Shown piece by piece: positions 12,475-29,228 of a stretch of 40,000 nt of DNA. The stretch is from Methyloligellaceae bacterium (GTDB lineage: Bacteria > Pseudomonadota > Alphaproteobacteria > Rhizobiales > Methyloligellaceae): assembly GCA_965227905.1 (NCBI GenBank), contig OZ245780.1, positions 1-40,000 on the forward strand. Direction: 5' to 3'. The position numbers and the translations under genes are program-made. Within the stretch, counting starts at the first letter, position 1, and each line of letters starts with the position of its first letter. The notes under the pieces are model-generated. The model was not told the origin of the DNA, ran no database searches, and saw nothing but the letters and a program-made list of their open reading frames with translations.

Positions 12475-14274
12475 CTAGTCGTTCGCCCGCACTTTGACGT
12501 AGGAGCCCGGCGCGTCCTCGATCACTTTCAGCTTGCCGCTGCCGGGCTTGCGCGCGGTGACCATCGGCCCGCCTTTTCGTTTCAGCCAGGGGCCCCAGTC
12601 GGACCACCATGACCCTTCATGGTGCTTCGCCGAAGCCAGCCATTCCTGTGGGTCTTCATTCTTGCTGCGGTTGATCCAGTAGCCGTATTTCTTCTTGGTC
12701 GGCGGATTGACGACACCGGCAATATGGCCCGATGCGCCGAGCACGAAGCGGACCGAGCCCGAAAGCAGATGCGTTGCCGGAAAGCAGGACGCCCATGGTG
12801 CGATGTGGTCTTCCTTGGTGGCCAGGAAGTAGCTGGGAGTCTTGATCTTGCCGATGTCGATCGGAACGCCATCGAGCTGGATATGGCCGGGTTTCCGCAG
12901 GCCGTTTTCGATGTAGAATTTGCGGACATATTCGGAAAGCATCTTGGCAGGCAGGGCAGTCGAGTCGGCATTCCAATAGAGAAGATCGAACGCCATCGGC
13001 TCCTTGCCGCGCAGATAATTGTTCACGACGAACGACCAGATCAGATCGTTCTCGCGCATCATGGAGAAGATGTTCGCAAGCCGCTTGCCTTCCAGATAGC
13101 CGGTATCGGTAATCGAGCCTTCTATCAGGGAGAGCTGCGCATCATCGATGAAGACCGAGATCTCACCGACATCCTCGAAGTCGACCATGGTCGTCAGGAA
13201 TGTCGCTGAGTTGACGCGCTTGTCATTCTTCGCCGCCATGTAGGCCAGGGTCGCCACGCTCAGGATGCCGCCGATACAGAAGCCGAGCAGGTTGATGCTC
13301 TTCTCGCCTGTGGCTTTCTCGATCGCATCGAACGCCGCCAGCGGACCCTCGAGCATGTAGTCTGTCATCGTCTTTTCGGCGAGTGCCTTGGTTGGATTGG
13401 CCCAGGAGATAACGAAGAGTGTATGGCCCTGGTCAACCGCCCACTTGATGAGGCTGTTCTTGGGCTGAAGATCGAGAATGTAGAACTTGTTGATCCAAGG
13501 CGGCACGAACAGGAGCGGTCGTTTGTGGACCTGCTTGGTGGATGGCGCATATTGGATGAGCTGCATCAGGTCGTTCTGGAAGACGACCTTGCCCGGCGTT
13601 GCAGCAACATTCTTCCCGAGCTCGAAGGCGGATTCATCCGTCATCGAGATCTTGAGCTGTCCTTTGCCGCGCTCCAGGTCTCCGAGCATGTTCTTCAGAC
13701 CGCTCAGGAGATTTTCCCCGCCGGTCTCCATCGTCTCGCGAACAACGACCGGATTGGTCAGCGCATAGTTCGTAGGCGACATGGCACTCATGAACTGACG
13801 CGTAAAGAAATCGACTTTCGCCCGTTCCTTTTCATCCAGCCCGTCGACGTCCTGCACCACGGTGCGCACCCATTCCGACGTCAGCAGATAGGACTGTTTG
13901 AGATAGTCGAAGAACGGCTCGTCCTGCCAGGCCTGATCGGCAAACCGGCGATCTCCATTCTCCGGCTTTGCCACAGCACCGGGCTCCAGTCCCGAGGCGC
14001 GGGTCATCATCGTTCGCCAAAGCGCAAAATTACCCTGCCAGAAATCCATGCTCGACCGAGCCGCTGTCATGGGATCGGTCATCATCTTCTGACCGAGCTG
14101 CAGAAAGGCGTTCGACACACCCTCGACATCGAACAGGTTCGTGCCGCGGCCCATCTCGTTCTGCTGCACAAAGGCGTTGACGACCATCTGGCTCTTGGTG
14201 GCCAGGTCCATCCACTCCTTTGCAATCTTCTCAGGGTTGGGAAGGTTCGGCCCGGGGCCTTTCGCATCTGTCAT
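12475..14274 (-). CDS. phaC: class I poly(3-hydroxyalkanoate) synthase
   Basis: ~600 aa with the lipase-box variant LLGFCIGGIL, and WINKFYILDL and DHIAPW segments typical of PhaC. The ATG at 14274 (MTDAKGPG...) is preferred over the GTG at 14310 given in the ORF track. Confidence 0.9.
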   Translation of the reverse strand: MTDAKGPGPNLPNPEKIAKEWMDLATKSQMVVNAFVQQNEMGRGTNLFDVEGVSNAFLQLGQKMMTDPMTAARSSMDFWQGNFALWRTMMTRASGLEPGAVAKPENGDRRFADQAWQDEPFFDYLKQSYLLTSEWVRTVVQDVDGLDEKERAKVDFFTRQFMSAMSPTNYALTNPVVVRETMETGGENLLSGLKNMLGDLERGKGQLKISMTDESAFELGKNVAATPGKVVFQNDLMQLIQYAPSTKQVHKRPLLFVPPWINKFYILDLQPKNSLIKWAVDQGHTLFVISWANPTKALAEKTMTDYMLEGPLAAFDAIEKATGEKSINLLGFCIGGILSVATLAYMAAKNDKRVNSATFLTTMVDFEDVGEISVFIDDAQLSLIEGSITDTGYLEGKRLANIFSMMRENDLIWSFVVNNYLRGKEPMAFDLLYWNADSTALPAKMLSEYVRKFYIENGLRKPGHIQLDGVPIDIGKIKTPSYFLATKEDHIAPWASCFPATHLLSGSVRFVLGASGHIAGVVNPPTKKKYGYWINRSKNEDPQEWLASAKHHEGSWWSDWGPWLKRKGGPMVTARKPGSGKLKVIEDAPGSYVKVRAND

Positions 14275-14426
14275 TGGACCGATTCCATCGTCATTCCACG
14301 CAATACACACATTCTATTCGCCGTCGCCGAGCGAACGACGGGCGGCTTCAGCTCGCAAGCTGACCATAGTCTATGCTGATTTGCAGCGGGACGTTAGTCG
14401 GTTGCAGCGAAAGTCTATGGGTTGGT

Positions 14427-15176
14427 TTATGGCCGCTGAACGGTGGGCTTGCCCATGTCGTGACCCATGGCGCTGTGGTCGACGGCTGCGTGATGGCTGT
14501 GATGTCCGCCAAAAGCCGAAAAGCAGGTATAGACGCCGAACAAAATCACACTCGCGCCCGCAATCTGCCGCATGGCCGGCTTTCGAACCAGGGCCATGAC
14601 ATGCTCGGCGACACCGCCCATCGCAAGCAGTACCGGCAATGTCCCGAGCCCGAAGCCCAGCATGATCAACGCACCCTGCCCCGGCGAGGCTGCCACGATC
14701 GCGAGCGCCAGAGCGGAATAGACCAGGCCGCACGGCAGCCACCCCCAGACCAGACCAAGTCCGAAAGCACGCAGGGGCGTTTCTGCCGGCAGGAAGCGAC
14801 TGCCAATGGGCTGGATTCGTTTCCAGAGGTGGAGCCCGAGTTTCTCAAGCACGGTAATGGCATGCCACCATCCCGCGAGATAGAAGCCCAAGAGGATCAT
14901 CAAAATACCGGCAATCAGGCGTCCGATCGGCGCGATTTCGCCAAGCGTCGTTTCTGCAATAAGCGAGCCTGCAAAGCCGGCCAGAGCGCCCGCGAGGACA
15001 TAGCTCGCGATGCGCCCTGCATTGTAGGAGAGATGATGACCGATCCGCGAAAGCGGCGATCGCCCTGATTGCGGCAAACTTGCGTTGAGAGCACCGACGA
15101 TCCCGCCGCACATGCCGATGCAGTGCGTTGACCCGATAAGGCCAATCGTGAGCGCGGTTATGAAGGGCAGTTCCAT
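14427..15176 (-). CDS. DsbD_2 / TauE-like membrane protein with HCxGMCGG motif and His-rich C-terminal tail
   Basis: 249-aa polytopic protein. The N-terminal helix carries GSTHCIGMCGGIVGA and a later helix carries WLPCGLVY. The C-terminus, GGHHSHHAAVDHSAMGHDMG, is His/Met-rich and looks like a metal-binding tail. It starts 24 nt downstream of the P1B ATPase. Confidence 0.7.
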   Translation of the reverse strand: MELPFITALTIGLIGSTHCIGMCGGIVGALNASLPQSGRSPLSRIGHHLSYNAGRIASYVLAGALAGFAGSLIAETTLGEIAPIGRLIAGILMILLGFYLAGWWHAITVLEKLGLHLWKRIQPIGSRFLPAETPLRAFGLGLVWGWLPCGLVYSALALAIVAASPGQGALIMLGFGLGTLPVLLAMGGVAEHVMALVRKPAMRQIAGASVILFGVYTCFSAFGGHHSHHAAVDHSAMGHDMGKPTVQRP

Positions 15177-15200: not shown

Positions 15201-17588
15201 TCAGACCTTGGCGGAGCCGACACTGGCCGGTGTATTGGCGAGCGTCCGGTTCGATGTTTCGACGAGAGCGGCGTCGCCATGAATTCCAAGAGGCCGCGAA
15301 GAATTCCAAACCACGAGCAGACTGCTGGCCGACATCGCCAGGGCGGCAAAGAGCGGATTGAGATGCCCGCTCATGGCGAGAGGAATGGCTGTCGCATTGT
15401 AAAGTAGCGCCCATCCGAGGTTCTGGCGGACCCGGCGGCGCGTCACGGCGATGACATCGAAGGCGTCAAAAATCCGACTAAGCCGGTCGCCCGGAATGAC
15501 GACATCGGCAGCGTCGACCGCGAGTGCCGTCGGTGCACCGAATGCAATGCCGAGATCGGCAGCGGCCAGTGCCGGCGCATCGTTGCTGCCATCGCCAATC
15601 ATGACAACCGTGCCCTCGGACTTCAGGCGCCGGATGACGGCGGCCTTGGCCTCCGGGGGTACACCCGCATAGACCTCGTCCACCCTGTCCTCGTAACCGC
15701 TTGGGTGCTCGGCGCCGGTGAGCAGGACGACGCGTGTGCGGCTGCGAAGCCGGTCGACGACATCCTCCCATTCGGGGCGTGATCGATCCGAAGTGACGAT
15801 CGCGCCATGGACGACCCCGTCCCAGCCGACGAACGAAACAACGCCCTCGCCCTGTTCGACCCTGTCAGTCGAGGCGACAATTCGGTCCGGGATCTCCCAA
15901 CCGAGTGTTGCGAAGAGTGTTCGCGCGCCGACAGCAACATTGTGGCCTTCCACCGTTGCGACAGCCCCGCGGCCTGGATGTATGACGAGGTCGCTGGACG
16001 AAAAGCGGTCATCCAAACGGGCGATAGCCTGGGCGATGGGATGACCCGAGCGGCGCTCGACAGCTGCGGCATATTCGATCACCTGCGGTGCTCCGAAGGT
16101 CTCGACAACCGTCATATCGCCCGTTGACAGCGTTCCGGTTTTGTCGATCGCCACAATGTCGATCTGCCGGACTTTCTCGAAGACATCTGCACTGGTCAGA
16201 ATGATGCCGTGGCGCAGTGCCGTGCTCACCGCTGCAGCAGAGGTCAGCGGAATTGCAAGACCGAAGGTGCACGGGCACGAGACGATCAATGTCGCGAGCC
16301 CCGTCAGCAATGCAAACCCGACTGGCGCACCGAGGAACAGCGATCCTGCCGTCACCAGCGCCGCCAGAACGAGAACGCCAGGGACAAAGACCCGCGCCAG
16401 CCGGTCCGCAAATCCGCGCGCGCCGGCAAGCGAGCTTTGGACGCTCCAGAGGACACGCGAGAGCGTATCCACCTGGCTCGTCGCCAACGGCCCCGCCTCA
16501 AACTCGATCTCTCCTTCGACGACGACTGTTCCGCCCAGCACCTCATCGCCAGGACCGCGCGTGACCGGAAACGGTTCACCGGTCATTAGTGACTCATCGA
16601 CAGCCGCCTCTCCCTTGACGATGGTGCCATTGAGCGGGACAGGCTCATACTGCCAGACGACAATGCGGTCGTTCGGCTTGAGGTCTGCAATGTTCCGTTG
16701 GATCAGTTCGCCATTGTCACGAATGCGGGCGAATGGCGAGCAGACATCCATGAGCTTTGTAAGCTCGTCGGTTGCCTCACCTCGCGCGCCTTGCTCGAAA
16801 TAGCGCCCGACGGTGACCACAGTGACGATAGCAGCGGCGACATCGAAGTAGAGTTCGAGCGAGCCCGCGATCAACTGGCCGACGCTGTAGGCATAAGCAG
16901 CCAGAATGGCGATCGCCAACAAATTGTCCATGTTGAGGACACCCGCCCGAAGGCCGATCCAGGCACCCCGAAAGATCGGAGCCCCGGCATAGGCGATCAG
17001 GATTGTCGTGAGTGCGAAGAGCACGTGCGGAACGGCAAAGAATGCAAGCCAGCGAACCGGCTCCAGGTCTTCGATCGGGACGATCCCCAAATGGGTTGGA
17101 TAATAGAAGGCGAGATAGAGCATCATGATCACGGCGGCGATCGAAGTCGCGGCGGTGACGCGCAGCAAAGACATGCGGTCGTCATGCTCGTCGGGAATAT
17201 CGCTCCGCTGCCGGGCTGTGTAACCGGCCCGGCTCAGGCGCTTCGGCAGCTGGGCTGCGTCGATGCGTTCCGGGTCGTAGATGATCTTCGCGGTCGCGGT
17301 GGCATAGCTGGAGGCCACGGACAGGATGCCGTCGATCCTTTGGGACGTGCGCTCAAACAGAATCTCGCAGGATGAACAATGCATCCCGTCGATCCGCAGG
17401 AAGGCCTCCTCTCCCTCAGGTATCACCTCAGCCTCAGCGGCAGCATCCGACTGTCTGGCGCTTAAGACATCTTCGCCGAAATGCCGATACACTTCCCTGC
17501 ATCCAATGCAGCAGAACGCATGCCCGTCGCCCTCAATCGGCGGGCCCGGGTTCGGCAGCGCACAGAGTTTGCAATCGGTTGCGGGCAT
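15201..17588 (-). CDS. heavy-metal (probably Cu) translocating P1B-type ATPase, FixI/CcoI-like N-terminus
   Basis: Shows the N-terminal Cys cluster CKLCALP...FCCIGCREVY, the HMA motif DGMHCSSCE and the TM metal site SCPCTFGLAIP. Also shows the phosphorylation site DKTGTLS and the hinge GDGSNDAPAL. The ATG at 17588 (MPATDCKLC) is preferred over the TTG at 17606. Confidence 0.9.
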   Translation of the reverse strand: MPATDCKLCALPNPGPPIEGDGHAFCCIGCREVYRHFGEDVLSARQSDAAAEAEVIPEGEEAFLRIDGMHCSSCEILFERTSQRIDGILSVASSYATATAKIIYDPERIDAAQLPKRLSRAGYTARQRSDIPDEHDDRMSLLRVTAATSIAAVIMMLYLAFYYPTHLGIVPIEDLEPVRWLAFFAVPHVLFALTTILIAYAGAPIFRGAWIGLRAGVLNMDNLLAIAILAAYAYSVGQLIAGSLELYFDVAAAIVTVVTVGRYFEQGARGEATDELTKLMDVCSPFARIRDNGELIQRNIADLKPNDRIVVWQYEPVPLNGTIVKGEAAVDESLMTGEPFPVTRGPGDEVLGGTVVVEGEIEFEAGPLATSQVDTLSRVLWSVQSSLAGARGFADRLARVFVPGVLVLAALVTAGSLFLGAPVGFALLTGLATLIVSCPCTFGLAIPLTSAAAVSTALRHGIILTSADVFEKVRQIDIVAIDKTGTLSTGDMTVVETFGAPQVIEYAAAVERRSGHPIAQAIARLDDRFSSSDLVIHPGRGAVATVEGHNVAVGARTLFATLGWEIPDRIVASTDRVEQGEGVVSFVGWDGVVHGAIVTSDRSRPEWEDVVDRLRSRTRVVLLTGAEHPSGYEDRVDEVYAGVPPEAKAAVIRRLKSEGTVVMIGDGSNDAPALAAADLGIAFGAPTALAVDAADVVIPGDRLSRIFDAFDVIAVTRRRVRQNLGWALLYNATAIPLAMSGHLNPLFAALAMSASSLLVVWNSSRPLGIHGDAALVETSNRTLANTPASVGSAKV

Positions 17589-17770
17589 AAGCACTCGACA
17601 AATCAAACAGAACTCAGTCTGTCAGAGTCTGACACATCATCGCGATGCGCATCTTTTTTTTCGTTCGCACCAGTGGTGCAAGGATTCCTATCGATACGGC
17701 CAACACTCTGCTTCACTGCGATACTCAAAGCTCATTCTGTCATGCGGAAATTTACATTCCTAATAATGAC

Positions 17771-17796
17771 AAAAAAATCCCGTTATGAGGGATTTT
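17771..17796 (-). terminator. rho-independent-terminator-like hairpin (orphan)
   Basis: AAATCCC (17775-17781), loop gttatga, GGGATTT (17789-17795). On the minus strand the stem is followed by a run of 7 T (complement of the A-run at 17771-17777). There is no convincing protein gene upstream of it on the minus strand. Confidence 0.35.
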
Positions 17797-18227
17797 CGGC
17801 AATACTGGCTTGATTGAATCTACCTATCTATAAATCGGTGACGGCAAACCTATGCCTGATCCAGCGGGCGAATATGCTTGAGATTCAGAGCTGTATGCCA
17901 GTTCCCGATCCTTGAAGCGAGACGTCGTTTCCCGATGGAGCAATTGCATTGGGTTGCTCGACGCCATGTAGGCGGTTGAGGTAGAATCATATTCCAATAA
18001 ACGATACTTTGGTAGGAGCTGCCTAGAAATTCATCAACCGTGGGCGCCTGGGCGCTGACCGATTCGATCCGCATGAAAAAATCGGATCGGGGCTGCAGCA
18101 CAACCGGCGTCTTCTCGATGGGCCCATCTTGGCAGCGGCAAAAGGTCAAAGGGTGAGAAGATCCGATGATTGCCAATCGGACAAGGCTCTTTCGACCAGC
18201 CTTGTTTCATAGGGGAGGTCATTATTG

Positions 18228-18794
18228 ATGCTGGACTTTATCTACCAGACGGGCTGGGGCGCATTCACGGTCATGCTGTTCTTTCAGCTCCCTTTCGCGT
18301 TGTTCTTCCTCTACGTGGTGTTTCGGAAATCGGCACCCAATTCCGGTTCGGGAACCGCGGCCGAAGGCAAGATCAACGTCCTGAAATATGTCTGGATGGG
18401 CTCAGTCGTCGTCCTCTTCCTCATAGTCAACATCTTAAGCATTCAGTTCATCCCCGCAGTCTCGACCGCGCGCGCGATCGCGTCGGGTGAGCCCATTCTG
18501 GATGTAGACGTTAAGGCAGAGTCCTGGAGTTATGAGATCTCCAAACGGGAGTTCGATGCCGGCACAGCTGTCCGCTTTAATGTCAAGAGCGTCGACACCG
18601 TGCATGGCTTTGCCGTCTACCATCCCAATGGAAAAATTCTTTTCACCATGATGCTTGTCCCCGGCGTCAAGGACTCTTCGCTTGTCTACAAGTTCAAGGA
18701 TCCGGGGGTCTACAAGGTGCGGTGCCTGGAATATTGCGGCATCGCGCATCATGGAATGTTTGACGAGATAATCGTCAAAGAACGCAGCAGCTAA
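18228..18794 (+). CDS. heme-copper oxidase subunit II (CuA cupredoxin, B-family/ba3-like)
   Basis: AGGGGAGG (18211-18218) lies 9 nt before the ATG at 18228. The product has two N-terminal TM helices followed by a cupredoxin domain. The complete CuA motif is present: VHGFAV...CLEYCGIAHHGM (H...CxExCGxxHxxM). Confidence 0.85.
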   Translation: MLDFIYQTGWGAFTVMLFFQLPFALFFLYVVFRKSAPNSGSGTAAEGKINVLKYVWMGSVVVLFLIVNILSIQFIPAVSTARAIASGEPILDVDVKAESWSYEISKREFDAGTAVRFNVKSVDTVHGFAVYHPNGKILFTMMLVPGVKDSSLVYKFKDPGVYKVRCLEYCGIAHHGMFDEIIVKERSS

Positions 18795-18816
18795 CCGGCG
18801 AGGGGAGGACTCCATC

Positions 18817-20352
18817 ATGTTAGCGGCAACAACCGCCATTCAACGCGTGCCGATATTCGGGCGCATGTTCAAGGTCGACACGAGCACCGGGCTCGAGGAG
18901 CTCAATTCCTGGCCGGCCCTCATGGTCATGTCGGCATTCATCTGGTTGTCGATCGCCATCTTCCTCGGCATCGCCATGCCGATCACCCAGATTTTCGGGC
19001 TGGAAACGAACCTCTATTATCAGGCACTGACGGCCCATGGCGCCGCAATGTCCTTTCCGTTCGTCTTCCAGCTCATGGTCGGCGTCGGCCTTCACCGGGC
19101 CGGCGGCTGCCTTGGCAAGCCGGTGACGGGACCTCTGGTCGCGCTCTTCTATATTTTCATGAATGTGGGCGGCCTGCTGTTCGCCGTTGCGGTCTTGGGC
19201 GGACTGAAGATCAGCTATGCCGTCATGTTCCCCCTTCCCGTCGTCGGCGTTGAGACCGGTCAATGGGATCTGTGGACAGTGATCGTCGGCTTCACCGGCA
19301 TCGCGCTGATCCTGATTTCGGTGATCGTGCTCTATCCGGTCCAGGTCATCAAAATGCTGTTCTTCGATGATGCGCGCGAGGAGTTGGTTCTGTCGCCCCG
19401 CACGCTCAAGGACCCGGGCATGCTGGGCATGGCGATGGCGGCTTTCGTGCTGCTGATCATGGGAACGCCTCTCATCATCGTCGCAAGTGCCGTGTTGCTG
19501 GCCCTCTATGGCATTCTGCCCATGGCGGCCGTCACCTGGGCTGTCGATCCGATGGTGTTCCAGTTCGTGTTCTACATCTTTGCGCACAACCTCATGGAGG
19601 CCATGGCGATCATGGTCATCAGTGCGGTCTATGCGACATTGCCGCTATACCTGGCAGACGGGACACGGAAGCTGTACAGCGACCGCATCGCCAATCTTGC
19701 CCTGTGGATCCTGCTGGTGACGTCGGTCACATCCTTCTTCCACCACTTCTTCACGATGTTCCCGGCGTTGCCTGCGGCTTTGTCCTATCACGGCAACATC
19801 ATGAGTTGGGGTACGGGCGTCGGCGCCGCTCTGACGATCTTTACCGTCGTCGCAACGATCTGGAAGCACGGCATTCGGCCCGAGTCCGGCCTGATGGCGG
19901 TCCTCATGGGCTTCGTGCTCTACATCATGGATGGCGTCAGCGCGATCGTGACTTCGACCGTCGCCTGGTCCTTCCAGCTTCACGGCACCATGTGGCAGTC
20001 GGGGCATACGATGGCGGTGCTCATATCCATGAGCATGATGTGGATCGGGGTGTTCATCCACCACTATCCGGTGATGACGGGCCGAACCCTGAGCAAGACG
20101 ATCGGCAGCTGGTTCGTCGGCCTCTATACGGTCGGCGCCATGGGCCTCGCCTATTCGTTCCTGGCCGCCGGCGCCGCCGGAATGCCGCGGCGCTTTGCGG
20201 AGTGGAACCAGGAAGGCTGGATGATGTATGGCTACATGATCCTGTTCTTCGGGATCTGCCTGCTGGCATCCTTCGTCGTGCTCGGTCTCGATCTGAGGCG
20301 CTCACGCGATATCCCTGCAACGGTGCAAGGCCAGCCTGCACCGGCAGAATAG
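18817..20352 (+). CDS. heme-copper oxidoreductase subunit I, divergent B-family-like
   Basis: 511-aa polytopic protein preceded by the RBS GAGGGGAGGA. YYQALTAHGAAM matches the helix II heme His. FYIFAHNLMEAM matches the CuB His. SFFHHFF matches the CuB HH pair. LHGTMWQSGHTMAV is the helix X region. The segment DPMVFQFVFYIFAHNLMEAMAIMVISAVYATLP aligns, from memory, to Thermus ba3 DPLVARTLFWWTGHPIVYFWLLPAYAIIYTILP. Confidence 0.85.
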   Translation: MLAATTAIQRVPIFGRMFKVDTSTGLEELNSWPALMVMSAFIWLSIAIFLGIAMPITQIFGLETNLYYQALTAHGAAMSFPFVFQLMVGVGLHRAGGCLGKPVTGPLVALFYIFMNVGGLLFAVAVLGGLKISYAVMFPLPVVGVETGQWDLWTVIVGFTGIALILISVIVLYPVQVIKMLFFDDAREELVLSPRTLKDPGMLGMAMAAFVLLIMGTPLIIVASAVLLALYGILPMAAVTWAVDPMVFQFVFYIFAHNLMEAMAIMVISAVYATLPLYLADGTRKLYSDRIANLALWILLVTSVTSFFHHFFTMFPALPAALSYHGNIMSWGTGVGAALTIFTVVATIWKHGIRPESGLMAVLMGFVLYIMDGVSAIVTSTVAWSFQLHGTMWQSGHTMAVLISMSMMWIGVFIHHYPVMTGRTLSKTIGSWFVGLYTVGAMGLAYSFLAAGAAGMPRRFAEWNQEGWMMYGYMILFFGICLLASFVVLGLDLRRSRDIPATVQGQPAPAE

Positions 20353-20504: not shown

Positions 20505-21122
20505 ATGATCTACGAAATGCGCACCTACAATTGCGTGCCGGGCAAGGCCCCGGAACTGCTTGAGCGCATCGGCGCGGCTTATGAGCACCGCGCGAAATAT
20601 TCCAAGGCGGCAGGCTTCTGGTACACCGATATCGGACCGCTGCATCAGGTCGTGCATATCTGGCCCTATGAGGACCCCGGCGAGCGCCAGCGCATTCGCG
20701 CCGAAGCGTCAAAGGACGAAAACTGGCCGCCTCATGTCTATGACATTCTGGATAACGCCCAGTCAGACATCTATGTGCCCGCACCGTTCTGTCCGGAGCT
20801 CAAAACAGGCGACCTCGGCCCGATCTATGAAATGCGCATCTACACGTTCAAGCCCGGCAGTTTTGCCGAGGTCGTGAAGCGCTGGGAAGAGGCGCTGGAT
20901 GAACGCCAGAAACTCTCGCCGCTGCTTCTCGCAATGATCAGCGAGAATGGGCCGCTTAACCGGTATGTGCATGTCTGGCCCTATGAGAGCCTGCAGCACC
21001 GCAGCGAGATCCGCGCTGAGGCCGAGGCCAAAGGTGTCTGGCCACCTAAGGGGGCGAGGCAGTTTTCGGTCAGGCAGGAGAACAAGATTCTGTTGCCGGC
21101 ATCTTTTTCTCCATTGCAATAG
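20505..21122 (+). CDS. NIPSNAP family protein (two repeats)
   Basis: MIYEMRTYNCVPGK...GPLHQVVHIWPYEDPGERQRIR is repeated as IYEMRIYTFKPGS...GPLNRYVHVWPYESLQHRSEIR. This is the typical NIPSNAP duplicated dimeric alpha-beta barrel pattern. Confidence 0.8.
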   Translation: MIYEMRTYNCVPGKAPELLERIGAAYEHRAKYSKAAGFWYTDIGPLHQVVHIWPYEDPGERQRIRAEASKDENWPPHVYDILDNAQSDIYVPAPFCPELKTGDLGPIYEMRIYTFKPGSFAEVVKRWEEALDERQKLSPLLLAMISENGPLNRYVHVWPYESLQHRSEIRAEAEAKGVWPPKGARQFSVRQENKILLPASFSPLQ

Positions 21123-21370: not shown

Positions 21371-22300
21371 ATGGATTTGGAAGAACGATCGAAAAACCTG
21401 GGTCGCCTATGGTGGATCACGGATGCACCATTATTCGTTGACGAGGTCCTCGTTCGTCGGATCCATGACGCGGTGATTTGGCCCGAATTTGAAGAAGAAT
21501 ATGTCGAGAAAACCAAGTTCAGCAAAGTAACAAGGTCCTTGGAAGGTGCGGCTAAGGCGGAGGGCGAAGGCGAGTTCAAGCTTCCCGAATTGATAGAATG
21601 GCTTAGCCCGAAGCTAATAGCGAAATCGGCCTTGGAGGGCAGCGTTGCGCGGATGAGCGAGGACGAATCGAAAAGCGTCGTCAAAGGCAATCCAGTCGTT
21701 AGCAGCGAGCGCAAATTGAATGATTTGGCCGTTGAGTATCTCTCCGAGTTTCCCGAACGCCTCCTGTTCGTGGATGTTCCGGGCGGTCAGTTTTCAAACT
21801 TCCAGGGAGAAGTAACTCGTGAACAGCTCGACAAACTTCTCGATTCCCCGCCACGACCCGTGGTTTTCGTCAACATTCTGCCAGGAGCGCCGCTCTTTCC
21901 AACCGTGGCGGAAATGGAGGCTGGCGAATTTCGACCGATCTTCCCCGCGCTCGATCGGATATTCTTAGCTAGAGAGAATCCAACTCCACGCTATGACGAT
22001 AGAGACAAGGGCAAACGCAGTGCCTATTGGGCAGCAGTTAGCAAAAACTTCGGATCACGCGTAGCCATGCAGGAGTTGGAAAAGGCCTGTGGTCGTGGCC
22101 GGATTGGTTGGATTGACTTCAGAATTCTGTTCGACAACGAAGGATCTACTGGTCACCTGCACGTTGTTCCAGCCGGCAAAGCCCATGCCGGCATCTTCGG
22201 CTATAATTTCGTTCATAGAGGGCACAAATACGGATGTCGAGTGGTGGCGACACTAAAATCGGGTACCGACATGAATGTCCTCGCAATCTACGAGCGCTAA
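21371..22300 (+). CDS. hypothetical protein (309 aa, no family recognised)
   Basis: ATG start with AGAGGG upstream and a clean 309-codon ORF with protein-like composition (e.g. GRIGWIDFRILFDNEGSTGHLHVVPAGKAHAGIFGYNFVHRGHKYGCRVVATL). Its stop lies 3 nt before the start of the HAD gene, suggesting translational coupling. Confidence 0.6.
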   Translation: MDLEERSKNLGRLWWITDAPLFVDEVLVRRIHDAVIWPEFEEEYVEKTKFSKVTRSLEGAAKAEGEGEFKLPELIEWLSPKLIAKSALEGSVARMSEDESKSVVKGNPVVSSERKLNDLAVEYLSEFPERLLFVDVPGGQFSNFQGEVTREQLDKLLDSPPRPVVFVNILPGAPLFPTVAEMEAGEFRPIFPALDRIFLARENPTPRYDDRDKGKRSAYWAAVSKNFGSRVAMQELEKACGRGRIGWIDFRILFDNEGSTGHLHVVPAGKAHAGIFGYNFVHRGHKYGCRVVATLKSGTDMNVLAIYER

Positions 22301-22303
22301 ACC

Positions 22304-23011
22304 ATGACTCACGGATTGCTAGTTACCGATGCCGACAACACACTCTGGGACACAAACAAAGTTTTCGCCGACGCACAGCTCGAAATCCTCGAACAGATCG
22401 AGATTGAAATCGGGGTACCAACTAATCCCCACGATCGCCTCGCATTTGTACGCCAAATCGATCAAGGCATTGCTCAACGACATGAGGCTGGCCTCAATTA
22501 TCCGCCTGAGCTTCTGGTGAAGGCAATTGTCGAGGCGCTTGGCTCTGCGGCACTGGGGGACAAGAAGATCGATGAAATCGTAGCCTCGTATTTCGATGTC
22601 CTTACAAAAACACCAAGACTACGGCACGGGGTTCGCCGGACCCTGAAGTGGCTGACCAAAGCTGATGTAGAGATCATCGTCGCGAGTGAAGGTGACGAAA
22701 CGCGACTGCGCAATAATCTCGACATGCACAAGCTGGACACAATCGTATCGGATTTGGTCATTGGACGAAAAAATCGTGAGTTTTTCAACGGACTCTTCCA
22801 GCGAAGCGGCGATAGCTACCCGAAGGTCTGCGTCGGTGACCAATTGGATCGGGATATCTTGCCGGCGAACGAAGCAGGCTTCAAAACGCTCTATTTCCCC
22901 GGAGGCTTCCGGCCGTCTTGGGAGTTCGATATGGCCGCTCAGGAAACTGATCGTGTGATAAAATCCTACACCGAAGTCAAAGACGCTTTCGCACTTCGCG
23001 ATGCGGCTTGA
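22304..23011 (+). CDS. HAD-superfamily hydrolase/phosphatase
   Basis: Motif I is LLVTDADNTLWDT (DxDxT). Motif II is IIVASEGD. Motif IV is VGDQLDRDILPANEAGF. The alpha-helical cap between motifs I and II is consistent with HAD subfamily I. Confidence 0.75.
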   Translation: MTHGLLVTDADNTLWDTNKVFADAQLEILEQIEIEIGVPTNPHDRLAFVRQIDQGIAQRHEAGLNYPPELLVKAIVEALGSAALGDKKIDEIVASYFDVLTKTPRLRHGVRRTLKWLTKADVEIIVASEGDETRLRNNLDMHKLDTIVSDLVIGRKNREFFNGLFQRSGDSYPKVCVGDQLDRDILPANEAGFKTLYFPGGFRPSWEFDMAAQETDRVIKSYTEVKDAFALRDAA

Positions 23012-23541
23012 TTGTTCGCAAGCTCGAAATTGTTGATCGATGAGTCGGCCCTTCGCCACCAACCGTCGGTTGACAGCCCTGGGAAAAACGAAATGTCCGC
23101 TTTCCTTATTTCAACGGTATTGGTTGGCGTTTCGATGAGCTCGATTGATGAAACCTCAAAAGGAGCGTTAGCCGCTCCCAAAAAACTCTGGTACTTACAC
23201 AAAAAGAGCGCCGCGAGGCATTCGGTCGACGGATCGCCAGGCGTTACTAAAAGCCTGGATAGTCGCTGAGGCTCGTGGGTTTCGAAATAGTTGATCAAAG
23301 GATCGCGATCTCCCAAATGGAAAGTGTGATCGACGCTATTGTCGATCCAGCGATGCCAGTCCGTTTTGAGATCGGCAAAATCGGCAGCAATGTTCGACTC
23401 AGAGTCCAGGGATTGTCCGCCGATGTAAGAAACCCGTGCTTTGACGATCTCGTTGTGTCCATGGGGAATTTGGCACTTTTCCGATCCGCATTGAAGCAGT
23501 CTGTGAGCCACAGAAAAACGTCGGCTGAAAACAATATCCAT
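22966..23541 (-). CDS. QueD / 6-pyruvoyl-tetrahydropterin synthase family protein (long form, 191 aa)
   Basis: FSVAHRLL...EKCQIPHGHNEIVKARV...DFADLKTDW...VDHTFHLG...PSTECLAALFL...IETPTN aligns motif by motif with E. coli QueD. The corresponding QueD segments are FEAAHRL...KCGRLHGHSF...DFAELK...LDHHYLN...PTSEVLA...KETCT. It is the last gene of the minus-strand operon, and its 3' end overlaps the HAD gene by 46 nt. Confidence 0.75.
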   Translation of the reverse strand: MDIVFSRRFSVAHRLLQCGSEKCQIPHGHNEIVKARVSYIGGQSLDSESNIAADFADLKTDWHRWIDNSVDHTFHLGDRDPLINYFETHEPQRLSRLLVTPGDPSTECLAALFLCKYQSFLGAANAPFEVSSIELIETPTNTVEIRKADISFFPGLSTDGWWRRADSSINNFELANNQAASRSAKASLTSV

Positions 23542-23546
23542 GAGTT

Positions 23547-24563
23547 TTAGTTCTTGCCTATAAATGTTCGGCTAACGTCATTGTGATCGGAACCGCCCAG
23601 AAAATCGATGTATTCTTTGCAGTCGAAACGCTGACCGCAGGCTGTGCATTGAGCCTTCAATTCTACAGTGATTGCGCTTCCTGGTGCGAGACGGGACGTT
23701 TCGACCGAGCCCCCTTCGACGTCTTCAGGGTTCGCCTGAAATACCAACTCGGTCGCACGCAATTTCTGGGCTTGCTTTATGGTCCATTCGAGCGCTGCCT
23801 GAGCGATTGTATCATCAACAGGTATCGCCATAAGACGACGCTCATCTGTCTGTTCATTGACAAAAAATAGAACGCAGCGCGCCGGCAGGTTGCCTGTTCG
23901 TTCCTCGAATAGTTTCGCGTAAGCCACTAATTGTCGGGCATAATCCGTCAAATAGGTGCTATCGGCACGCGCTCCTTTGTAATCCCAGATTTCCCATTCA
24001 TTGGGCTGCGCAAACACAGGCGTCTCTTCAGGAACGCCTGTCAGCGTGTCCAAGTCTTGCCAGCGCCAAGAACGATCGTAAGTAAGAGGCTTTTCCTGCT
24101 GGAGAACCAAGTCAAGCACACCGGTCAGCATAAGGCGCTTCTTGCCTGCGAAATCCTGTGCGATCAACTTTCTGACTGTCCGAATTTCGTATTCGACATG
24201 TTTGGCGCCTTCAATTGCCGCACGAACGATTTCGTCCGGCTGGCCGCCAGGAAACAAATTGTTCTGAACACGACCGAGGATTTCTTTTTTCGAAGTAAAC
24301 GCTGTTCTGACACCACGCGCATACAGCACCCTGTAGTGCTTCTCAAGTTGAGCCTGTAGCGCATCCACATCTGGAAACGCGTCAGTCCGGCGCAATTCGT
24401 TCGCCATCCACTCCATGGCGTGGTGGATGAGTCGCCCCTCCATCGCCTGGATTTGTTCATAGGGATGGAAGCCCGCCAGCTTCTCGAAAGACCAAGCGCG
24501 TGGACAACGCCGATGCGCCAGTATATCGCCGGTATACGAAAATTCGAGAACGTCATTGCTCAT
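23547..24563 (-). CDS. PD-(D/E)XK nuclease with Cas4/AddB-type Fe-S cysteine signature
   Basis: 338 aa. An N-terminal Cys (HRRCPRAW) plus the C-terminal CTACGQRFDC (Cx2Cx5C) form the 4-Cys pattern of Cas4/AddB nucleases. The catalytic core is LTGVLDLV...EIWDYKGAR...YARQLVAYAKLF (D...ExK...QxxxY). The start overlaps the helicase stop by 11 nt. Confidence 0.75.
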   Translation of the reverse strand: MSNDVLEFSYTGDILAHRRCPRAWSFEKLAGFHPYEQIQAMEGRLIHHAMEWMANELRRTDAFPDVDALQAQLEKHYRVLYARGVRTAFTSKKEILGRVQNNLFPGGQPDEIVRAAIEGAKHVEYEIRTVRKLIAQDFAGKKRLMLTGVLDLVLQQEKPLTYDRSWRWQDLDTLTGVPEETPVFAQPNEWEIWDYKGARADSTYLTDYARQLVAYAKLFEERTGNLPARCVLFFVNEQTDERRLMAIPVDDTIAQAALEWTIKQAQKLRATELVFQANPEDVEGGSVETSRLAPGSAITVELKAQCTACGQRFDCKEYIDFLGGSDHNDVSRTFIGKN

Positions 24564-26991
24564 GCCATAACCTGACTTCCACGTCTTCTACATCGGGATG
24601 CTCAGTTGGCGACTGAAATTCAAAGAGAGTCTCTAAGGCCGGATTTGGTGCCATAAATGCTTTTTCCGGATCGACTTCTTGCAAGATCGTCAGTGACTTT
24701 TCAGCGCGGGACATCGCGACGTAAGCTTCGCGTTCGCGGTCGGCCATAGCGAGGTCATTGCAGCTAGGATCAGAGGTGGTGACTGACGTATCTGTCAGTT
24801 CGTATCCCACCCTTTGACCACTGAAGAGCTTGGTCCGGAGCACAGGTCCGAACTCGATTTCACGTCCGATGCCCGTAACAATCACATGATCGAACTCAAG
24901 GCCCTTCGACGTGTGGTGTGTCATCAGTATTACTGCGTCCTGCTCGAAGAATTCGACCTCCTGGTCCTCGGGGTCTTCGTTCTGAACGTATCCACCAAAG
25001 TGATGTAGAAGTTCCCAGTATTGTTTCTGCCATTCTACTTTCCCGCTAACACGCTCGGCGTTAAGCGGTTGATCGAGGGACCGCATCGTCAACCTTGTTG
25101 GGGCGATGTTCGCTTCAAGCAATTGGGTAAACAGTGCCTGACGGAAGAGTTCCATTGTGTAACCAGCGCCACGAAAGAGGGGGTCAGCCAACAATCGCGC
25201 CACCAGACCAGCGATCGTTAAGCGTCCGCCAACACTACTCGCAATGAGATCTTCTCGAATCTGATCAAGCAAATCGGTCAGTCGCTTTCGATCAGGCGTC
25301 GGTTGCCCAATTCGCCCCCCTCCGTCCTTTACAAACTTCTTCTGGCAAGCAATGTGATGCCCATTCATAGGAAAATGTGGATCGGCGGAGTAAGCCGCCG
25401 CCCTTTTGGCCGAACAGGCCGCAGGACTACCCTGATAGCAACTGGCCCATACTTCTACCGACCGATTCGACGCACCCACCCGCTGCTTTGTGACTGGATC
25501 GATGAGATACGACAAAAGGCCAAGCAGCATTGAGACGGGGCTATCACTGTCTGTCGCGGTCTTGCTACTTGTGTTGAATACACGCAAGCCTTCGGCTTCC
25601 ATGGCCTGCCGCAAAACAAAGGCTGGCGAAGGACTGGATCTTTGCCCCGCCTTTTCGCGCGCTGAGAACATGATGACAGCGGCGCTTTCCGGCGAATCTT
25701 CGCGGCCTACTGGTTTTGCAGCAAGTTCCTTCGCTGCCGCTTCGCAAACTGCCCTCCAAGGTCCGGCGAGATGCCGAATTGGCTGATCGTGCGCTGTCGA
25801 CTGACTGTTTGACCGTACAGACTTTGGTAAAGCTAGTTGTCTCAGGACGGTCGCATTCTTGAATGCCTGACAAAAATCTACAATCGTCTTTGTACTGCGA
25901 TAATTCGTTTCGAGGGTTTCGGCCCGATAATTGGTTCCGATATCTTCACAGTGAGGCCGCAGCCCGTGGAAACAATCAATATCCGAGCCTCGGAAACGAT
26001 AAAGCGCCTGATCGTCATCGCCTACGACAGTAAGTTTGCAAGTTGGATTTGTGAGCCAAGCTGTATGGATCGCAAACTGGATTGGATTGCTGTCCTGAAA
26101 TTCGTCAACAAAGATATGATCGAAATGATCGATCATATCGGGCTGCGCATGCAGGAAAACCCGCTGAATGGTAGCGAAGTCCACTACCTTGCCATCAGCA
26201 AGCAAATCCTCCCACCGCGCTGCAAGGTCAATAAGGTCAGTGGTAACGCCAGATACGCCCGGCCGCTTATCGACCCCATTCGGTGTTCCAGCTTGTTCAC
26301 AGCGTGGCGTCCACGTCTCGAAATGCTGTGCAATCATTTCGAGCATAACCTTCGTCAAACGCATTCCCGAAAGCGACAGCGTGTTGTCCTCCCACGGCTT
26401 GGTGAATAGCGCGAGAAATTCACCCCTACGCAATAAGCGAGTGACCGGGCCGGTATTGTCTTTGCCTAGCGAGTAATGACTGCGGTTCATCCTCGCAAAA
26501 GTTTCGGCCTGGTCCATCATTGTCCGACCGTCTTCGCGGTAAGCATCATTGTGGTCCACAAGGATCTGTTCACAGAGGCTATGGATAGTGCCGATGTGAA
26601 CGTTGTGGATTTGAGGATCTCGAACCGCGATCCCAAGCTGCTTAGCTTCTCTTTGAAGGGCTTCCGCACGCTCTGAAGCGCGAATGATAAGCTCAGTAGC
26701 CGCGCGCTTCGTGAATGTCGTGACAATAATCCGTCCTGGATTGGCGCCCGCCACCATTAGATCATAGAGCAAACGCCAGACGATCATTTCTGTTTTGCCG
26801 GAACCAGGGCCAGCGAGAATTTGAAGGACGCGATCAGATGAATCAACACCAATAATCCGCCGCTGCACGCCGTCTTCTGGTAAACGGTCTCGGCCATTCG
26901 CCTGCAACACTGCGTCGACCACTGCGAAATATTGCGCCGGTTGAAGTAGTGCGGACTCTGCGAGCGGGTTGCTTGGTGAATTAGTTGTCAT
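24553..26991 (-). CDS. UvrD/Rep/PcrA-type SF1 DNA helicase
   Basis: 812 aa with a full motif set. Motif I is LAGPGSGKTE, Ia is TTFTKRAATEL, II is FVDEFQDSNPIQ and III is VVGDDDQALYRFRGS. Motif IV is TNYRST, V is HHTSKGLEFDHVIV and VI is AYVAMSRAEKSL. Confidence 0.9.
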   Translation of the reverse strand: MTTNSPSNPLAESALLQPAQYFAVVDAVLQANGRDRLPEDGVQRRIIGVDSSDRVLQILAGPGSGKTEMIVWRLLYDLMVAGANPGRIIVTTFTKRAATELIIRASERAEALQREAKQLGIAVRDPQIHNVHIGTIHSLCEQILVDHNDAYREDGRTMMDQAETFARMNRSHYSLGKDNTGPVTRLLRRGEFLALFTKPWEDNTLSLSGMRLTKVMLEMIAQHFETWTPRCEQAGTPNGVDKRPGVSGVTTDLIDLAARWEDLLADGKVVDFATIQRVFLHAQPDMIDHFDHIFVDEFQDSNPIQFAIHTAWLTNPTCKLTVVGDDDQALYRFRGSDIDCFHGLRPHCEDIGTNYRAETLETNYRSTKTIVDFCQAFKNATVLRQLALPKSVRSNSQSTAHDQPIRHLAGPWRAVCEAAAKELAAKPVGREDSPESAAVIMFSAREKAGQRSSPSPAFVLRQAMEAEGLRVFNTSSKTATDSDSPVSMLLGLLSYLIDPVTKQRVGASNRSVEVWASCYQGSPAACSAKRAAAYSADPHFPMNGHHIACQKKFVKDGGGRIGQPTPDRKRLTDLLDQIREDLIASSVGGRLTIAGLVARLLADPLFRGAGYTMELFRQALFTQLLEANIAPTRLTMRSLDQPLNAERVSGKVEWQKQYWELLHHFGGYVQNEDPEDQEVEFFEQDAVILMTHHTSKGLEFDHVIVTGIGREIEFGPVLRTKLFSGQRVGYELTDTSVTTSDPSCNDLAMADREREAYVAMSRAEKSLTILQEVDPEKAFMAPNPALETLFEFQSPTEHPDVEDVEVRLWHEQ

Positions 26992-27020
26992 CCCTGTACG
27001 TCATCCACTAGCAGCAGACA

Positions 27021-28736
27021 TTAGCAATTCGACGCCTTACCTCTGACCAGCGTAAAAAGCTTCCAAGTGTTGTGTGTCCCACGACGCTTGTTTCGATTCG
27101 ATCCGCGGAAAATCAATACGTCGATCCCCGATTTCTTGCAGACTGGGCAAGGGCAATGTTCCCACGGCCGATCTTTGAGAGTGCGCTCATAGCGGGCAGC
27201 GACTTTAGATGGATCCTCGCTAGAACGATCGAGCTTGCTGTCATACTCAATGACTGCAGACAGGGTCGCTCTCAAAGACACTCGGCGTTTCCCATAACCA
27301 TGAAGCGCATCAAGCGCCGCCGCCTCCAGGGCTGCAAGTTTGCAGAGATCGTGCCCCGCCTCTAGAAGGGTATTTCGGGTGCGACCGTCAGAAGTCATCG
27401 GAACGCGGATCGCCGCATACCATGCCCCATTATCTGCGAGATAGTTTTGCTCAGACCGAAGCCATGCTTTGCGGAAATATGTGGCGCTGTCGAAGCTTGT
27501 AACGCCAAGGCTGCGAAACTGTGCCTGTAGCTTTGGCCGAAACACGCCGAAAAGGTGAACGTCGGGTGGGTTCCTGCGTTGCTTTAGCGACGCCATCGTT
27601 GATGAAACGATATCAAAGACGACATCATCGGGAAGCGGGACTAATCCCCCAAGTGCTATGCGTTTATACCCCATAGCGGCATAGAGGTTGGCGTTCTCGA
27701 CATATTGGTCTGTGTTGAGCCCTTGCACCGTTCCGACTGGAACGAAACCCGCCTTGCGACGCTTAGCAGCCGCTAAGAACGCGGCAGCATTTTCTACGGT
27801 GATCTCTATTCGCCGCTGCCGTTCCTGTTTCGACAGCTGCACCTTCTCGTTACCCACGCGAATTGCTGGCACCGGAATGTGGTCAACACTCGCGCCGAAA
27901 TCAAAATTATAGAGATCGTAGAGGCTAGTGGCGTAATCGACGCTAATTGGCGGCTTTTCCTCGTCAACATAGGAGAAGGCGCCACAATCACCGAAGAGAG
28001 CCTGTGTTCGATTGAGCCCGTAGTGAGCTCTGAGGTCGATCGGCCGCATGGTTCGCGCTTCCAGCCCACCGACATATTTTAGCGGTCCTTTAGCTTCGCG
28101 CTTCTGAGCCAGACTGACAAGAATTCCATCGGCAATTTTGTAGGGGCGCATTAGGCGCGCGCAGTGGATGTCTGTTCGTTCGGATTTGGGTCCGGAAAAC
28201 TGATCCGCCACAAAGTCGAATTCAGGATCAATCAGATCATCCCAATCCGGCAGAAAATACTGAAGCCGCCCTTTCGGCTGACTGTTGAAGGCTTGCCGTT
28301 CTGAAGCATTGCTCGACCGGAGATAAGAACCAAGTTGCTGGCGCTTGATACCGATTGGCCCCTTGAAGAGATCCACTTTGCCGGATTGCTCGAGGTATGT
28401 TGTTGGCAGGGCCGCAAGGTAGTCTTTTCCCAGACAAAGATTAATCCGATCATAGGAGTTAAGCCATGACGCCGCTTCCACGCTGATTTCAGGCGCGAGT
28501 TCGCTGGCCCGCTCTGCCGTCATCCGCCTATCATAGTCGGCGATGTCGGTAAGCGCGCCGATCATCCCATATTGGGCGGAGAGCACAGCAACATCGAGAT
28601 CTTTTGGCCAATAATGTGTGCGAAGGCGCGAGCGAAAATCCTGGTAGAGCGGGCCGTCATACCGATGAACGGCTGGCGTTTCCCCTGCTGTTTTTGTCTT
28701 GCGGCTTGAGCAGCCGAGCACCAGTAGTTCCGACAT
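27021..28736 (-). CDS. fusion protein: N-terminal uncharacterised domain (~190 aa) + C-terminal tRNA-guanine-transglycosylase-like (DpdA-like) domain
   Basis: The C-terminal ~370 aa carry TGT/DpdA-like landmarks: LFGDCGAFSY, FGASVDHIP, RIALGGLVP and VTSFDSATY. A terminal Zn motif is also present, CPCPVCKK...GTHN (CxCxxC...H). The N-terminal part (LLVLGCSSRKTKTAGETPAVHRYDGPLYQ...VLSAQYGMIG...ADYDRRMT) was not placed in a named family. The RBS GAGGTG lies 7 nt upstream of the ATG at 28736. Confidence 0.7.
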   Translation of the reverse strand: MSELLVLGCSSRKTKTAGETPAVHRYDGPLYQDFRSRLRTHYWPKDLDVAVLSAQYGMIGALTDIADYDRRMTAERASELAPEISVEAASWLNSYDRINLCLGKDYLAALPTTYLEQSGKVDLFKGPIGIKRQQLGSYLRSSNASERQAFNSQPKGRLQYFLPDWDDLIDPEFDFVADQFSGPKSERTDIHCARLMRPYKIADGILVSLAQKREAKGPLKYVGGLEARTMRPIDLRAHYGLNRTQALFGDCGAFSYVDEEKPPISVDYATSLYDLYNFDFGASVDHIPVPAIRVGNEKVQLSKQERQRRIEITVENAAAFLAAAKRRKAGFVPVGTVQGLNTDQYVENANLYAAMGYKRIALGGLVPLPDDVVFDIVSSTMASLKQRRNPPDVHLFGVFRPKLQAQFRSLGVTSFDSATYFRKAWLRSEQNYLADNGAWYAAIRVPMTSDGRTRNTLLEAGHDLCKLAALEAAALDALHGYGKRRVSLRATLSAVIEYDSKLDRSSEDPSKVAARYERTLKDRPWEHCPCPVCKKSGIDVLIFRGSNRNKRRGTHNTWKLFTLVRGKASNC

Positions 28737-28842
28737 TCAAACACCTCAACATGCAAGTAACGAGAATATATATGATGCAATCTCCTTTTACGAGATCCGA
28801 TCTGCACTACATTAAAACTTTCTGCTAAATGTACGCGCTACT

Positions 28843-29067
28843 TCAGATTGTCGCAGGTACAAATATTCCAACCTCTGATTCGCCGTGCAAACTATTGTCG
28901 TCACCCCAAATGAGCTGCGAACCGAAACATATGCCCGCGATCTGATTTTTGGTTCTGCAGACCACATTGGGCTCAAAACAGCAATCGGGATGAGCCAACA
29001 GCAGGATTCCATGCTGGAAAAATGAAAGATGGCTGTCAAAGCCATAGCGATAGCCAAGGCGCAGCAT
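28843..29067 (-). CDS. hypothetical small protein or 5'-truncated gene remnant
   Basis: The ORF-track version (28843..29418) would overlap the opposite-strand MobC-like gene by >160 nt. It also has no in-frame ATG/GTG/TTG between 29364 and 29067. The only non-overlapping start is the ATG at 29067 (MLRLGYRYGFDSHLSFFQHGILLLAHPDCCFEPNVV...). No family was recognised and there is no clear RBS. Confidence 0.2.
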   Translation of the reverse strand: MLRLGYRYGFDSHLSFFQHGILLLAHPDCCFEPNVVCRTKNQIAGICFGSQLIWGDDNSLHGESEVGIFVPATI

Positions 29068-29228
29068 TTGATTCCGGATGGATACGGCAGCCGCTAGGAC
29101 TCTATTGATCCGAATTGGCGCGCCCGGGAGGAGAAAGTTCGAACGAGATTTTTGACACTCTTGAACAATGGAATAAGCAGTTAAAGGCTGAAAGTATCCA
29201 AATCGAACAGCGCTCCAAGCAAGTTCGT

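Follow-up and report, generated by a model that had tools for sequence, protein, structure and literature searches.

Positions 1 to 40,000 of the forward strand of contig OZ245780.1 (assembly GCA_965227905.1), the stretch referred to here as the window, come from a Methyloligellaceae bacterium (Alphaproteobacteria; Rhizobiales) and belong to a complete 6.18-Mb single-contig genome, on which the coordinates of paralogues are given as G000:C1. Two co-directional genes in the window, 22 nt apart and both with intact reading frames, appear from their sequence to encode a haem-copper oxidoreductase of the nNOR family that is probably a nitric oxide (NO) reductase. A first-pass annotation had flagged the pair as an oxidase with a CuA-bearing subunit II and a subunit I with non-canonical residues at its metal and haem positions. 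The features of the pair are the following:

18228..18794, forward strand: gene for nNOR subunit II, an open reading frame (ORF) of 188 aa with weak matches to cytochrome oxidase subunit II (Pfam COX2, 20 bits; NCBIfam CoxB, 60.7 bits)
18817..20352, forward strand: gene for nNOR subunit I, an ORF of 511 aa with the 12-helix haem-copper fold (PF00115, 1.7e-40, 139.6 bits)
19036-19038 and 20011-20013, forward strand: codons of H74 and M399, the predicted low-spin haem ligands
20005-20007, forward strand: codon of H397, the predicted high-spin haem ligand
19585-19587 (H257), 19597-19599 (E261), and 19741-19746 (H309/H310), forward strand: codons of the predicted non-haem metal ligands
19630..19860, forward strand: conserved polar residues on helices VI and VIII of subunit I, a candidate K-channel-like proton path

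Ligand residues and fold of the two subunits

Two N-terminal membrane helices (approximately residues 10-33 and 50-80) precede the periplasmic cupredoxin domain of subunit II. The complete CuA site that the first-pass annotation had described in this domain is confirmed: the full ligand set (H126, C166, the carbonyl of E168, C170, H174, and M177; codons at 18603-18605 for H126 and at 18723-18758) is present with the canonical spacing C166-L-E168-Y-C170-G-I-A-H174-H-G-M177, and none of them varies among 79 family sequences. The N-termini of the homologues (MLDF...) are in keeping with a start at the ATG at 18228, with a TTG at 18225 as an alternative, and strong ribosome-binding sites (GGGAGG and GGGGAGGA) precede both genes.

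The 511-aa subunit I scores far under every NCBIfam oxidase cut-off. The register of its ligand residues was established by three independent methods, namely phmmer searches against solved structures (the aa3-600 quinol oxidase 6koc and caa3 2yev), a MAFFT L-INS-i alignment of 59 haem-copper sequences that includes the five paralogues of the window genome, and hhalign profile-profile comparisons with a Tyr-bearing A/B set (E 8e-35) and an Asn-type set (E 7e-36). All three place A-H257-N-L-M-E261 on the motif G-H-P-x-V-Y, with H257 at the CuB His and Glu261 at the position of the cross-linked Tyr. They likewise align F-F-H309-H310 with the HH pair, T-A-H74-G with the helix-II His, and G-H397-T-M399 with the helix-X H-x-H, where H397 corresponds to the high-spin haem His and Met399 falls, in every alignment, on the second, low-spin haem His. 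The first-pass annotation had read both replacements from a manual alignment and had allowed that a proper one might restore the canonical Tyr and second His; the alignments give Glu261 and Met399 instead. A further His in the same region, in L-H389-G-T eight residues upstream of H397, aligns with an H-(D/N)-T motif kept by other families and not with a haem ligand. The position six residues before the HH pair, at which the annotation had also missed a Tyr, is indeed occupied by Ser303; the cbb3 CcoN of the window genome has a Tyr there. By sequence, the non-haem metal site would thus comprise three His and one Glu, the cross-link Tyr is missing from both of its known positions, and the low-spin haem would be ligated by His74 and Met399.

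No variation occurs at the seven ligand positions of subunit I (H74, H257, E261, H309, H310, H397, and M399) among 81 homologues of 63-89 % identity, nor in four more distant cluster representatives (36-40 % identity), so that the odd residues do not represent a sequencing accident. That the locus is instead a misaligned ordinary B-family oxidase, or a decaying gene or pseudogene, is scarcely credible, given that three independent alignment methods concur, that the ligand residues are invariant over relatives of 36-97 % identity, that the frames are intact with ribosome-binding sites and the structural model is confident, and that at least 138 species-level genomes carry the family. Both readings were rejected on the alignment and conservation evidence.

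The AlphaFold2 model of subunit I has a predicted local distance difference test score (pLDDT) of 86 and a predicted template modelling score (pTM) of 0.88, and the ligand positions fall within its helices 64-99, 245-278, 289-314, and 392-421. Foldseek recovers the subunit I fold, with A-family chains at ranks 1-35 and the first ba3 chain at rank 36; the TM-score against B-family ba3 is 0.70-0.76. In phmmer searches of the PDB, ba3 was not found at E <= 1 and the sequence matches were to A-family chains only. The earlier statement that subunit I aligns well with B-family (ba3-type) enzymes is thus correct only in part: the match to ba3 is no better than that to A-family enzymes.

Helices VI and VIII of subunit I carry a stripe of polar residues (Y272, Y324, S330, T333, T340, T343, and T347). 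Four of them (Y272, Y324, S330, and T347) do not vary, and the remaining three are conservatively kept, including in the relatives of 36-40 % identity. By analogy with the position of the published nNOR proton channel, the stripe is a candidate K-channel-like proton path from the cytoplasm. A separate residue, Asp372 (codon 19930-19932), is also invariant even in the 36-40 % identity relatives; it replaces the first Gly of the A-family helix-IX motif F-T-V-G-G and may provide a second carboxylate near the catalytic haem.

Family placement

The nNOR family was defined by Murali et al. (PNAS 2024; PMC11214002) and is described in the nNOR passages of that paper as B-family-related, with a homologue of the CuA subunit encoded alongside, the active-site residues of cNOR and qNOR (three His and a Glu), and a low-spin haem with His/Met ligation. 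The same passages report a conserved proton channel at the location of the B-family K-channel and only a distant relationship to cNOR and qNOR. The FIND preprint (2019, bioRxiv 10.1101/592808), where nNOR is first mentioned, presents nNOR and sNOR as close relatives. We file the locus as nNOR because its combination of features is that of the published description; the residues seen are the published hallmarks of this named family, to which the locus adds one further member. The first-pass suggestion of an NO-reducing or otherwise atypical B-related enzyme, with Glu in place of Tyr and possibly a His/Met-ligated haem, accordingly agrees with a description already in print, its NO-reducing activity being a prediction.

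A search of 1.84 billion cluster representatives delineates a small family with sharp limits, made up of one cluster at 715 bits and four full-length clusters at 330-284 bits, along with shorter fragments. Beyond this family, the next full-length matches score only 92 bits, declining to 60, and read G-H-(T/S)-x-x-N, H-H-L-Y-M-D, and H-F-H, which identifies them as Asn-type enzymes, known as sNOR (Table A4, PMC8756737). Among the 53 full-length matches inspected, no Glu-type (cNOR/qNOR-like) sequence was present. Pairwise phmmer comparisons with the five other haem-copper subunits of the genome were too weak for ranking.

The Glu/Met sequences group as a single clade on a long stem of the maximum-likelihood tree, with a value of 100 in the Shimodaira-Hasegawa-like approximate likelihood ratio test (SH-aLRT). 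The clade lies amid Asn-type, Asp-type, and B-like Tyr-bearing sequences (SH-aLRT 92 and 76), separate from the A family and from the group of cNOR and the C family. A clade of nNOR with cNOR alone was rejected by the approximately unbiased (AU) test (p 0.008). The deep placement of the nNOR clade with B-like and sNOR enzymes is only moderately supported by these sequences.

Neighbouring genes and genomic distribution

The surroundings of the two genes were compared across 80 related loci from other genomes. The subunit II gene is present at all 80. The other features of the window that enter this comparison are:

15201..17606, reverse strand: gene for a CcoI/FixI-like Cu(I)-translocating P1B-ATPase (TIGR01511, 383 bits; TIGR01525, 411 bits; Pfam HMA, E1-E2_ATPase, and Hydrolase)
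14427..15176, reverse strand: gene for a DsbD_2-family membrane protein (PF13386, 2.9e-56) with an HCIGMCGG motif, downstream of the ATPase gene
17607..18227: divergent spacer of 621 bp between the ATPase and subunit II genes
20505-21122: NIPSNAP gene, recurring in 0/80 loci
12475-14310: PhaC gene, recurring in 1/80 loci

The ATPase gene is transcribed divergently from the reductase genes, and its product has an N-terminal Cys cluster in the style of FixI/CcoI, an HMA domain, and the membrane motifs CPC, YN, and MSASS. A CcoI-like Cu-ATPase gene stands beside the genes for subunits II and I in 74 of the related loci, the misses lying on short contigs. Less constant neighbours are a haem O synthase (41 loci; TIGR01473, 331 bits), a DsbD_2 protein (38 loci), and a FixL/FixJ-like two-component pair (30 loci). 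The ATPase is probably the copper supplier for the copper centre or centres of the enzyme, and the DsbD_2 protein probably a metal- or thiol-handling partner in its assembly. Together, the conserved neighbours suggest that one site holds a prenylated haem, that the enzyme has a copper supply of its own, and that it is under low-oxygen control. The Cu-ATPase, haem O synthase, DsbD_2, and FixLJ-like neighbours are unmentioned in the nNOR passages of the main texts consulted. NIPSNAP and PhaC were considered as members of the unit and rejected because of their lack of recurrence.

Within the 621-bp spacer, the search for FNR/DNR/NnrR boxes yielded only TTGAT-N4-ATCAA matches with two mismatches, at chance level. 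A terminator-like hairpin with a T-run lies in the spacer on the reverse strand (17773-17797), with no convincing gene upstream of it; similar sites occur at chance frequency. Outside the reductase unit, the G+C content falls from ~0.57-0.61 to ~0.50-0.54 past the NIPSNAP gene (21371-40000). In one Hyphomicrobiales metagenome-assembled genome (MAG), the nNOR locus occurs twice on a single 2.7-Mb contig, in identical form (L021 and L038; G003/G023:C3:20254-21777 and 2463845-2465368). The ATPase and DsbD_2 genes accompany both copies, and the gene of an IclR-type regulator separates the ATPase gene from that of subunit II.

When 185,579 species genomes were scanned for the pattern, 138 proved to encode a relative, mostly Alpha-, Beta-, and Gammaproteobacteria. 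Among the cultured carriers are Sedimenticola selenatireducens (DSM 17993), Maritimibacter fusiformis, Pelomicrobium sp. G1, and Sulfuritalea hydrogenivorans; the complete genome of Candidatus Desulfobacillus denitrificans contains the gene as well, and a Methyloligellaceae MAG has one that is 99 % identical to that of the window. Within the order of the window genome, nNOR was present in two of 200 other sampled genomes, and in none of five from the same family. Its sporadic presence within the order suggests horizontal spread.

The window genome contains a nirS/nirN/nirF cluster (1.679-1.690 Mb) and a clade I nosZ; none of its genes passes the nirK cut-off. Its six haem-copper subunits I are those of an aa3 and a cbb3 oxidase, a cNOR NorB (G000:C1:2769554-2770903; canonical, with HLWVEATWE), a divergent cbb3-like protein, an Asn-type (sNOR) enzyme, and nNOR. 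The Asn-type subunit I (L005; G000:C1:670231-671670) has F-G-H-V-F-I-N, HHLLQD, and an intact H-F-H. The divergent cbb3-like protein (L004; G000:C1:1734790-1736211; 473 aa) scores 225 bits against ccoN, for which the cut-off is 583. It carries an HHYLY motif and, in place of the helix-VI Tyr, a Gly, and is encoded ~45 kb from the nirS cluster.

A full nirS-family match was present in 18 of 20 other nNOR genomes, compared with 33 of 200 sampled genomes of the order to which the window genome belongs. Like the nir and nosZ genes of the window genome, this pattern fits a setting of denitrification; since related genomes are not independent, the co-occurrence serves as an indication and not as a statistic. 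Among 21 nNOR genomes, cNOR was found in six and a qNOR-like gene in two, and 13 had neither. The 12 nirS-bearing genomes without cNOR or qNOR each have a further COX1 gene of ~210-235 bits, which in 11 of them lies 3-24 kb from a nirS-family gene, with nNOR located elsewhere. Ten of these 12 COX1 genes could be read (the frames of L096 and L103 are unreadable), and all ten have G-H-S-S-Q-Q, with Gln at the Tyr position, the signature of eNOR. The idea that nNOR is the sole NO reductase of some denitrifiers was dropped, as all 12 of these genomes carry another COX1 gene.

Several other nNOR genomes also encode ORFs of ~460-505 aa with weak COX1 similarity (26-68 bits; L109, L110, and L112-L115; for example, G007:C1:2188893-2190110). 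These ORFs keep G-G-H-T-L-Q-F and P-A-H-Y-H-G and have no HH pair. Three of them (L109, L110, and L114, in G007, G010, and G013) lie within ~10 kb of an eNOR-type gene or nirS, and two (L113 and L112, in G014 and G015) lie beside an A-family oxidase gene. Each looks like an uncharacterised subunit-I-like protein.

Proposed function and comparison with known systems

The putative enzyme would catalyze the reaction 2 NO + 2 e- + 2 H+ -> N2O + H2O. Electrons from a periplasmic donor, either a cytochrome c or a cupredoxin, would enter at the CuA of subunit II and pass to the low-spin haem held by His74 and Met399, a type of ligation for which the published estimate of the potential is ~150 mV above that of bis-His. 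The low-spin haem would in turn reduce a binuclear site composed of the high-spin haem (proximal His397) and the non-haem metal (His257, His309, His310, and Glu261), where two NO would be converted to nitrous oxide (N2O). Without a His-Tyr cofactor such a site would supply two electrons, not four, and, as no redox-active Tyr is present, reduction of NO rather than O2 is favoured. The polar stripe on helices VI and VIII may deliver cytoplasmic protons, in which case the reaction would be electrogenic, and the CcoI-like Cu-ATPase and the DsbD_2 protein probably serve the assembly of the copper centres.

Several observations weigh against an nNOR-family NO reductase. Genes for nir, nor, or nos are clustered with nNOR in none of the 80 related loci, and FNR/DNR boxes (<=1 mismatch) occur upstream at 4 of 79 loci, compared with ~1 (maximum 5) in random controls, which is no enrichment. 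The window genome encodes three putative NO reductases (cNOR, sNOR-type, and nNOR), and cNOR, qNOR-like, or eNOR-type genes accompany nNOR in all of the nirS-carrying genomes examined. With one of these always alongside, nNOR is in no case the sole candidate for NO reduction, and its role may be specialised or different. Given a dedicated Cu-ATPase at nearly every locus, the non-haem metal may be copper rather than iron. In the AU test, a position of nNOR as sister to the whole group of cNOR and the C family was not rejected (p 0.20). As of a 2026 paper, activity has been confirmed only for eNOR among the new clades.

An nNOR-family protein with a physiological reaction other than respiratory NO reduction is the alternative to which several of these observations lend weight. 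It could dismutate NO, act on N2O, peroxide, or peroxynitrite, or serve as a high-affinity NO scavenger or sensor-like sink at the oxic-anoxic transition. Taken together, these variants strike us as unlikely. Consistent with them are the constant company of another putative NO reductase (cNOR and sNOR-type in the window genome), a location that never adjoins nir, nor, or nos genes, and the FixLJ-like pairs. The enzyme also has its own Cu-ATPase and frequently its own haem O synthase, unlike the cNOR set of haems b and c with iron, and passages in the literature on other Tyr-less haem-copper families propose that these dismutate NO or reduce N2O. However, nothing points positively to any particular other substrate, and the ligand set is the same as that of proven NO reductases. 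Several NO reductase families per genome are common, according to PMC11214002, and redundancy alone therefore proves little.

A related and rather doubtful proposal is that nNOR does not repeat the chemistry of cNOR on a B-type scaffold and would instead be a copper-containing enzyme (CuB with three His and Glu) that bears haem O and is fed with protons from the cytoplasm. Such an enzyme would be an energy-conserving NO reductase, or catalyze another reaction, beside the main NO reductase of nirS denitrifiers and under FixLJ-type low-oxygen control. The Cu-ATPase in 74/80 loci, the haem O synthase in 41/80, the helix-VIII polar stripe, and Asp372 are all compatible with such an enzyme.

The locus could also encode an unusual terminal oxidase able to reduce O2 despite lacking the His-Tyr cofactor, drawing the fourth electron, for example, from the high-potential His/Met haem or from CuA. 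We consider this improbable. Its CuA, two haems, three-His metal site, and K-channel-like polar stripe would suit an oxidase, as would the CcoI-like Cu-ATPase, of the kind used in cbb3 assembly, the haem O synthase neighbour typical of oxidases, and the FixLJ-like regulators. However, neither known cross-link position has a Tyr (Glu261 in helix VI, Ser303 in helix VII), the other invariant Tyr residues are distant from H257 in sequence, the Tyr-less eNOR showed no O2 reduction, and the window genome already has aa3 and cbb3 oxidases.

The product of NO reductases, N2O, is a strong greenhouse gas. The locus adds a complete single-contig genome that combines nNOR, cNOR, and an sNOR-type enzyme with nirS and nosZ, and the presence of three putative NO reductases makes it useful background for the question of why a single organism maintains all of them. 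Should activity be demonstrated, nNOR would be valuable for bioenergetics, as it joins a cNOR-like metal site with electron entry at CuA, a predicted His/Met haem, and a possible cytoplasmic proton path; with this combination it could test whether NO reduction can conserve energy. Concrete hypotheses on cofactors and regulation follow from the neighbourhood data (Cu-ATPase, haem O synthase, and FixLJ-like pair). The core finding restates published hallmarks, and the gains made here are incremental: the neighbourhood statistics, the co-occurrence pattern, and the complete genome with three putative NO reductases.

Among the known systems, cNOR and qNOR (for example, NorBC of Pseudomonas aeruginosa) resemble nNOR in the helix-VI H-x3-E and the HH pair, which form the FeB ligand set, and in having no cross-link Tyr. 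The partner subunit of cNOR is a cytochrome c (NorC), whereas the nNOR locus encodes a CuA cupredoxin partner. The low-spin haem of cNOR is bis-His (H-G-H), where the nNOR locus has H-T-M, and its motif HLWVEATWE includes another Glu four residues further along. In the tree, cNOR groups with the C family (SH-aLRT 100), apart from the nNOR clade, and it is described in the cNOR passages of PMC11214002 as lacking a cytoplasmic proton channel. The C-family cbb3 oxidases have cytochrome c subunits and, six residues ahead of the HH pair, a Tyr, in contrast to the CuA subunit and Ser303 of the locus. Subunit I has no match to TIGR00780 (ccoN); cbb3 is the name that the NCBI pipeline gives to relatives.

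In the B family, subunit II of the ba3 oxidase has one membrane helix, whereas the nNOR subunit II encoded here has two. The ba3 enzyme of Thermus thermophilus (PDB 1EHK/1XME) shares with nNOR the subunit I fold and a CuA subunit II, and its single K-type channel region has a candidate counterpart in nNOR. It differs at helix VI, where its G-H-P-x-V-Y includes the cross-linked Tyr, and at helix X, where it has H-F-H; the corresponding motifs of nNOR are A-H-N-L-M-E and H-T-M. The Asn-type sNOR enzymes, Tyr-less like nNOR and B-family-related, as nNOR probably is, are its nearest relatives in sequence (92-60 bits; hhalign E 7e-36), but have Asn at the Tyr position (Table A4, PMC8756737) and the canonical H-F-H, compared with Glu and H-T-M in nNOR.

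The eNOR of Rhodothermus marinus is likewise B-related and Tyr-less, with a CuA subunit and haem-modifying genes nearby. It reduces NO and cannot reduce O2 (PMC11214002), which shows that this branch of the superfamily is capable of the first reaction and not the second. Among the newly proposed families, eNOR alone has measured activity. At the Tyr position eNOR has Gln (PMC8756737), and some members have a His/Lys low-spin haem (PMC11214002), where nNOR has Glu and predicted His/Met ligation. Operons of eNOR often include CtaA, whereas nNOR loci include haem O synthase, and the eNOR-type genes of nNOR genomes lie close to nirS-family genes (11/12 at 3-24 kb), unlike nNOR. The closest correspondence is with nNOR itself as portrayed in the nNOR passages of PMC11214002, which no feature of the locus contradicts: both have a CuA subunit II, three His and a Glu at the metal site, Met in place of the helix-X His, and membership in a rare family, while the polar stripe of the locus is a candidate for the published channel and Asn-type (sNOR) enzymes are its nearest relatives in sequence.

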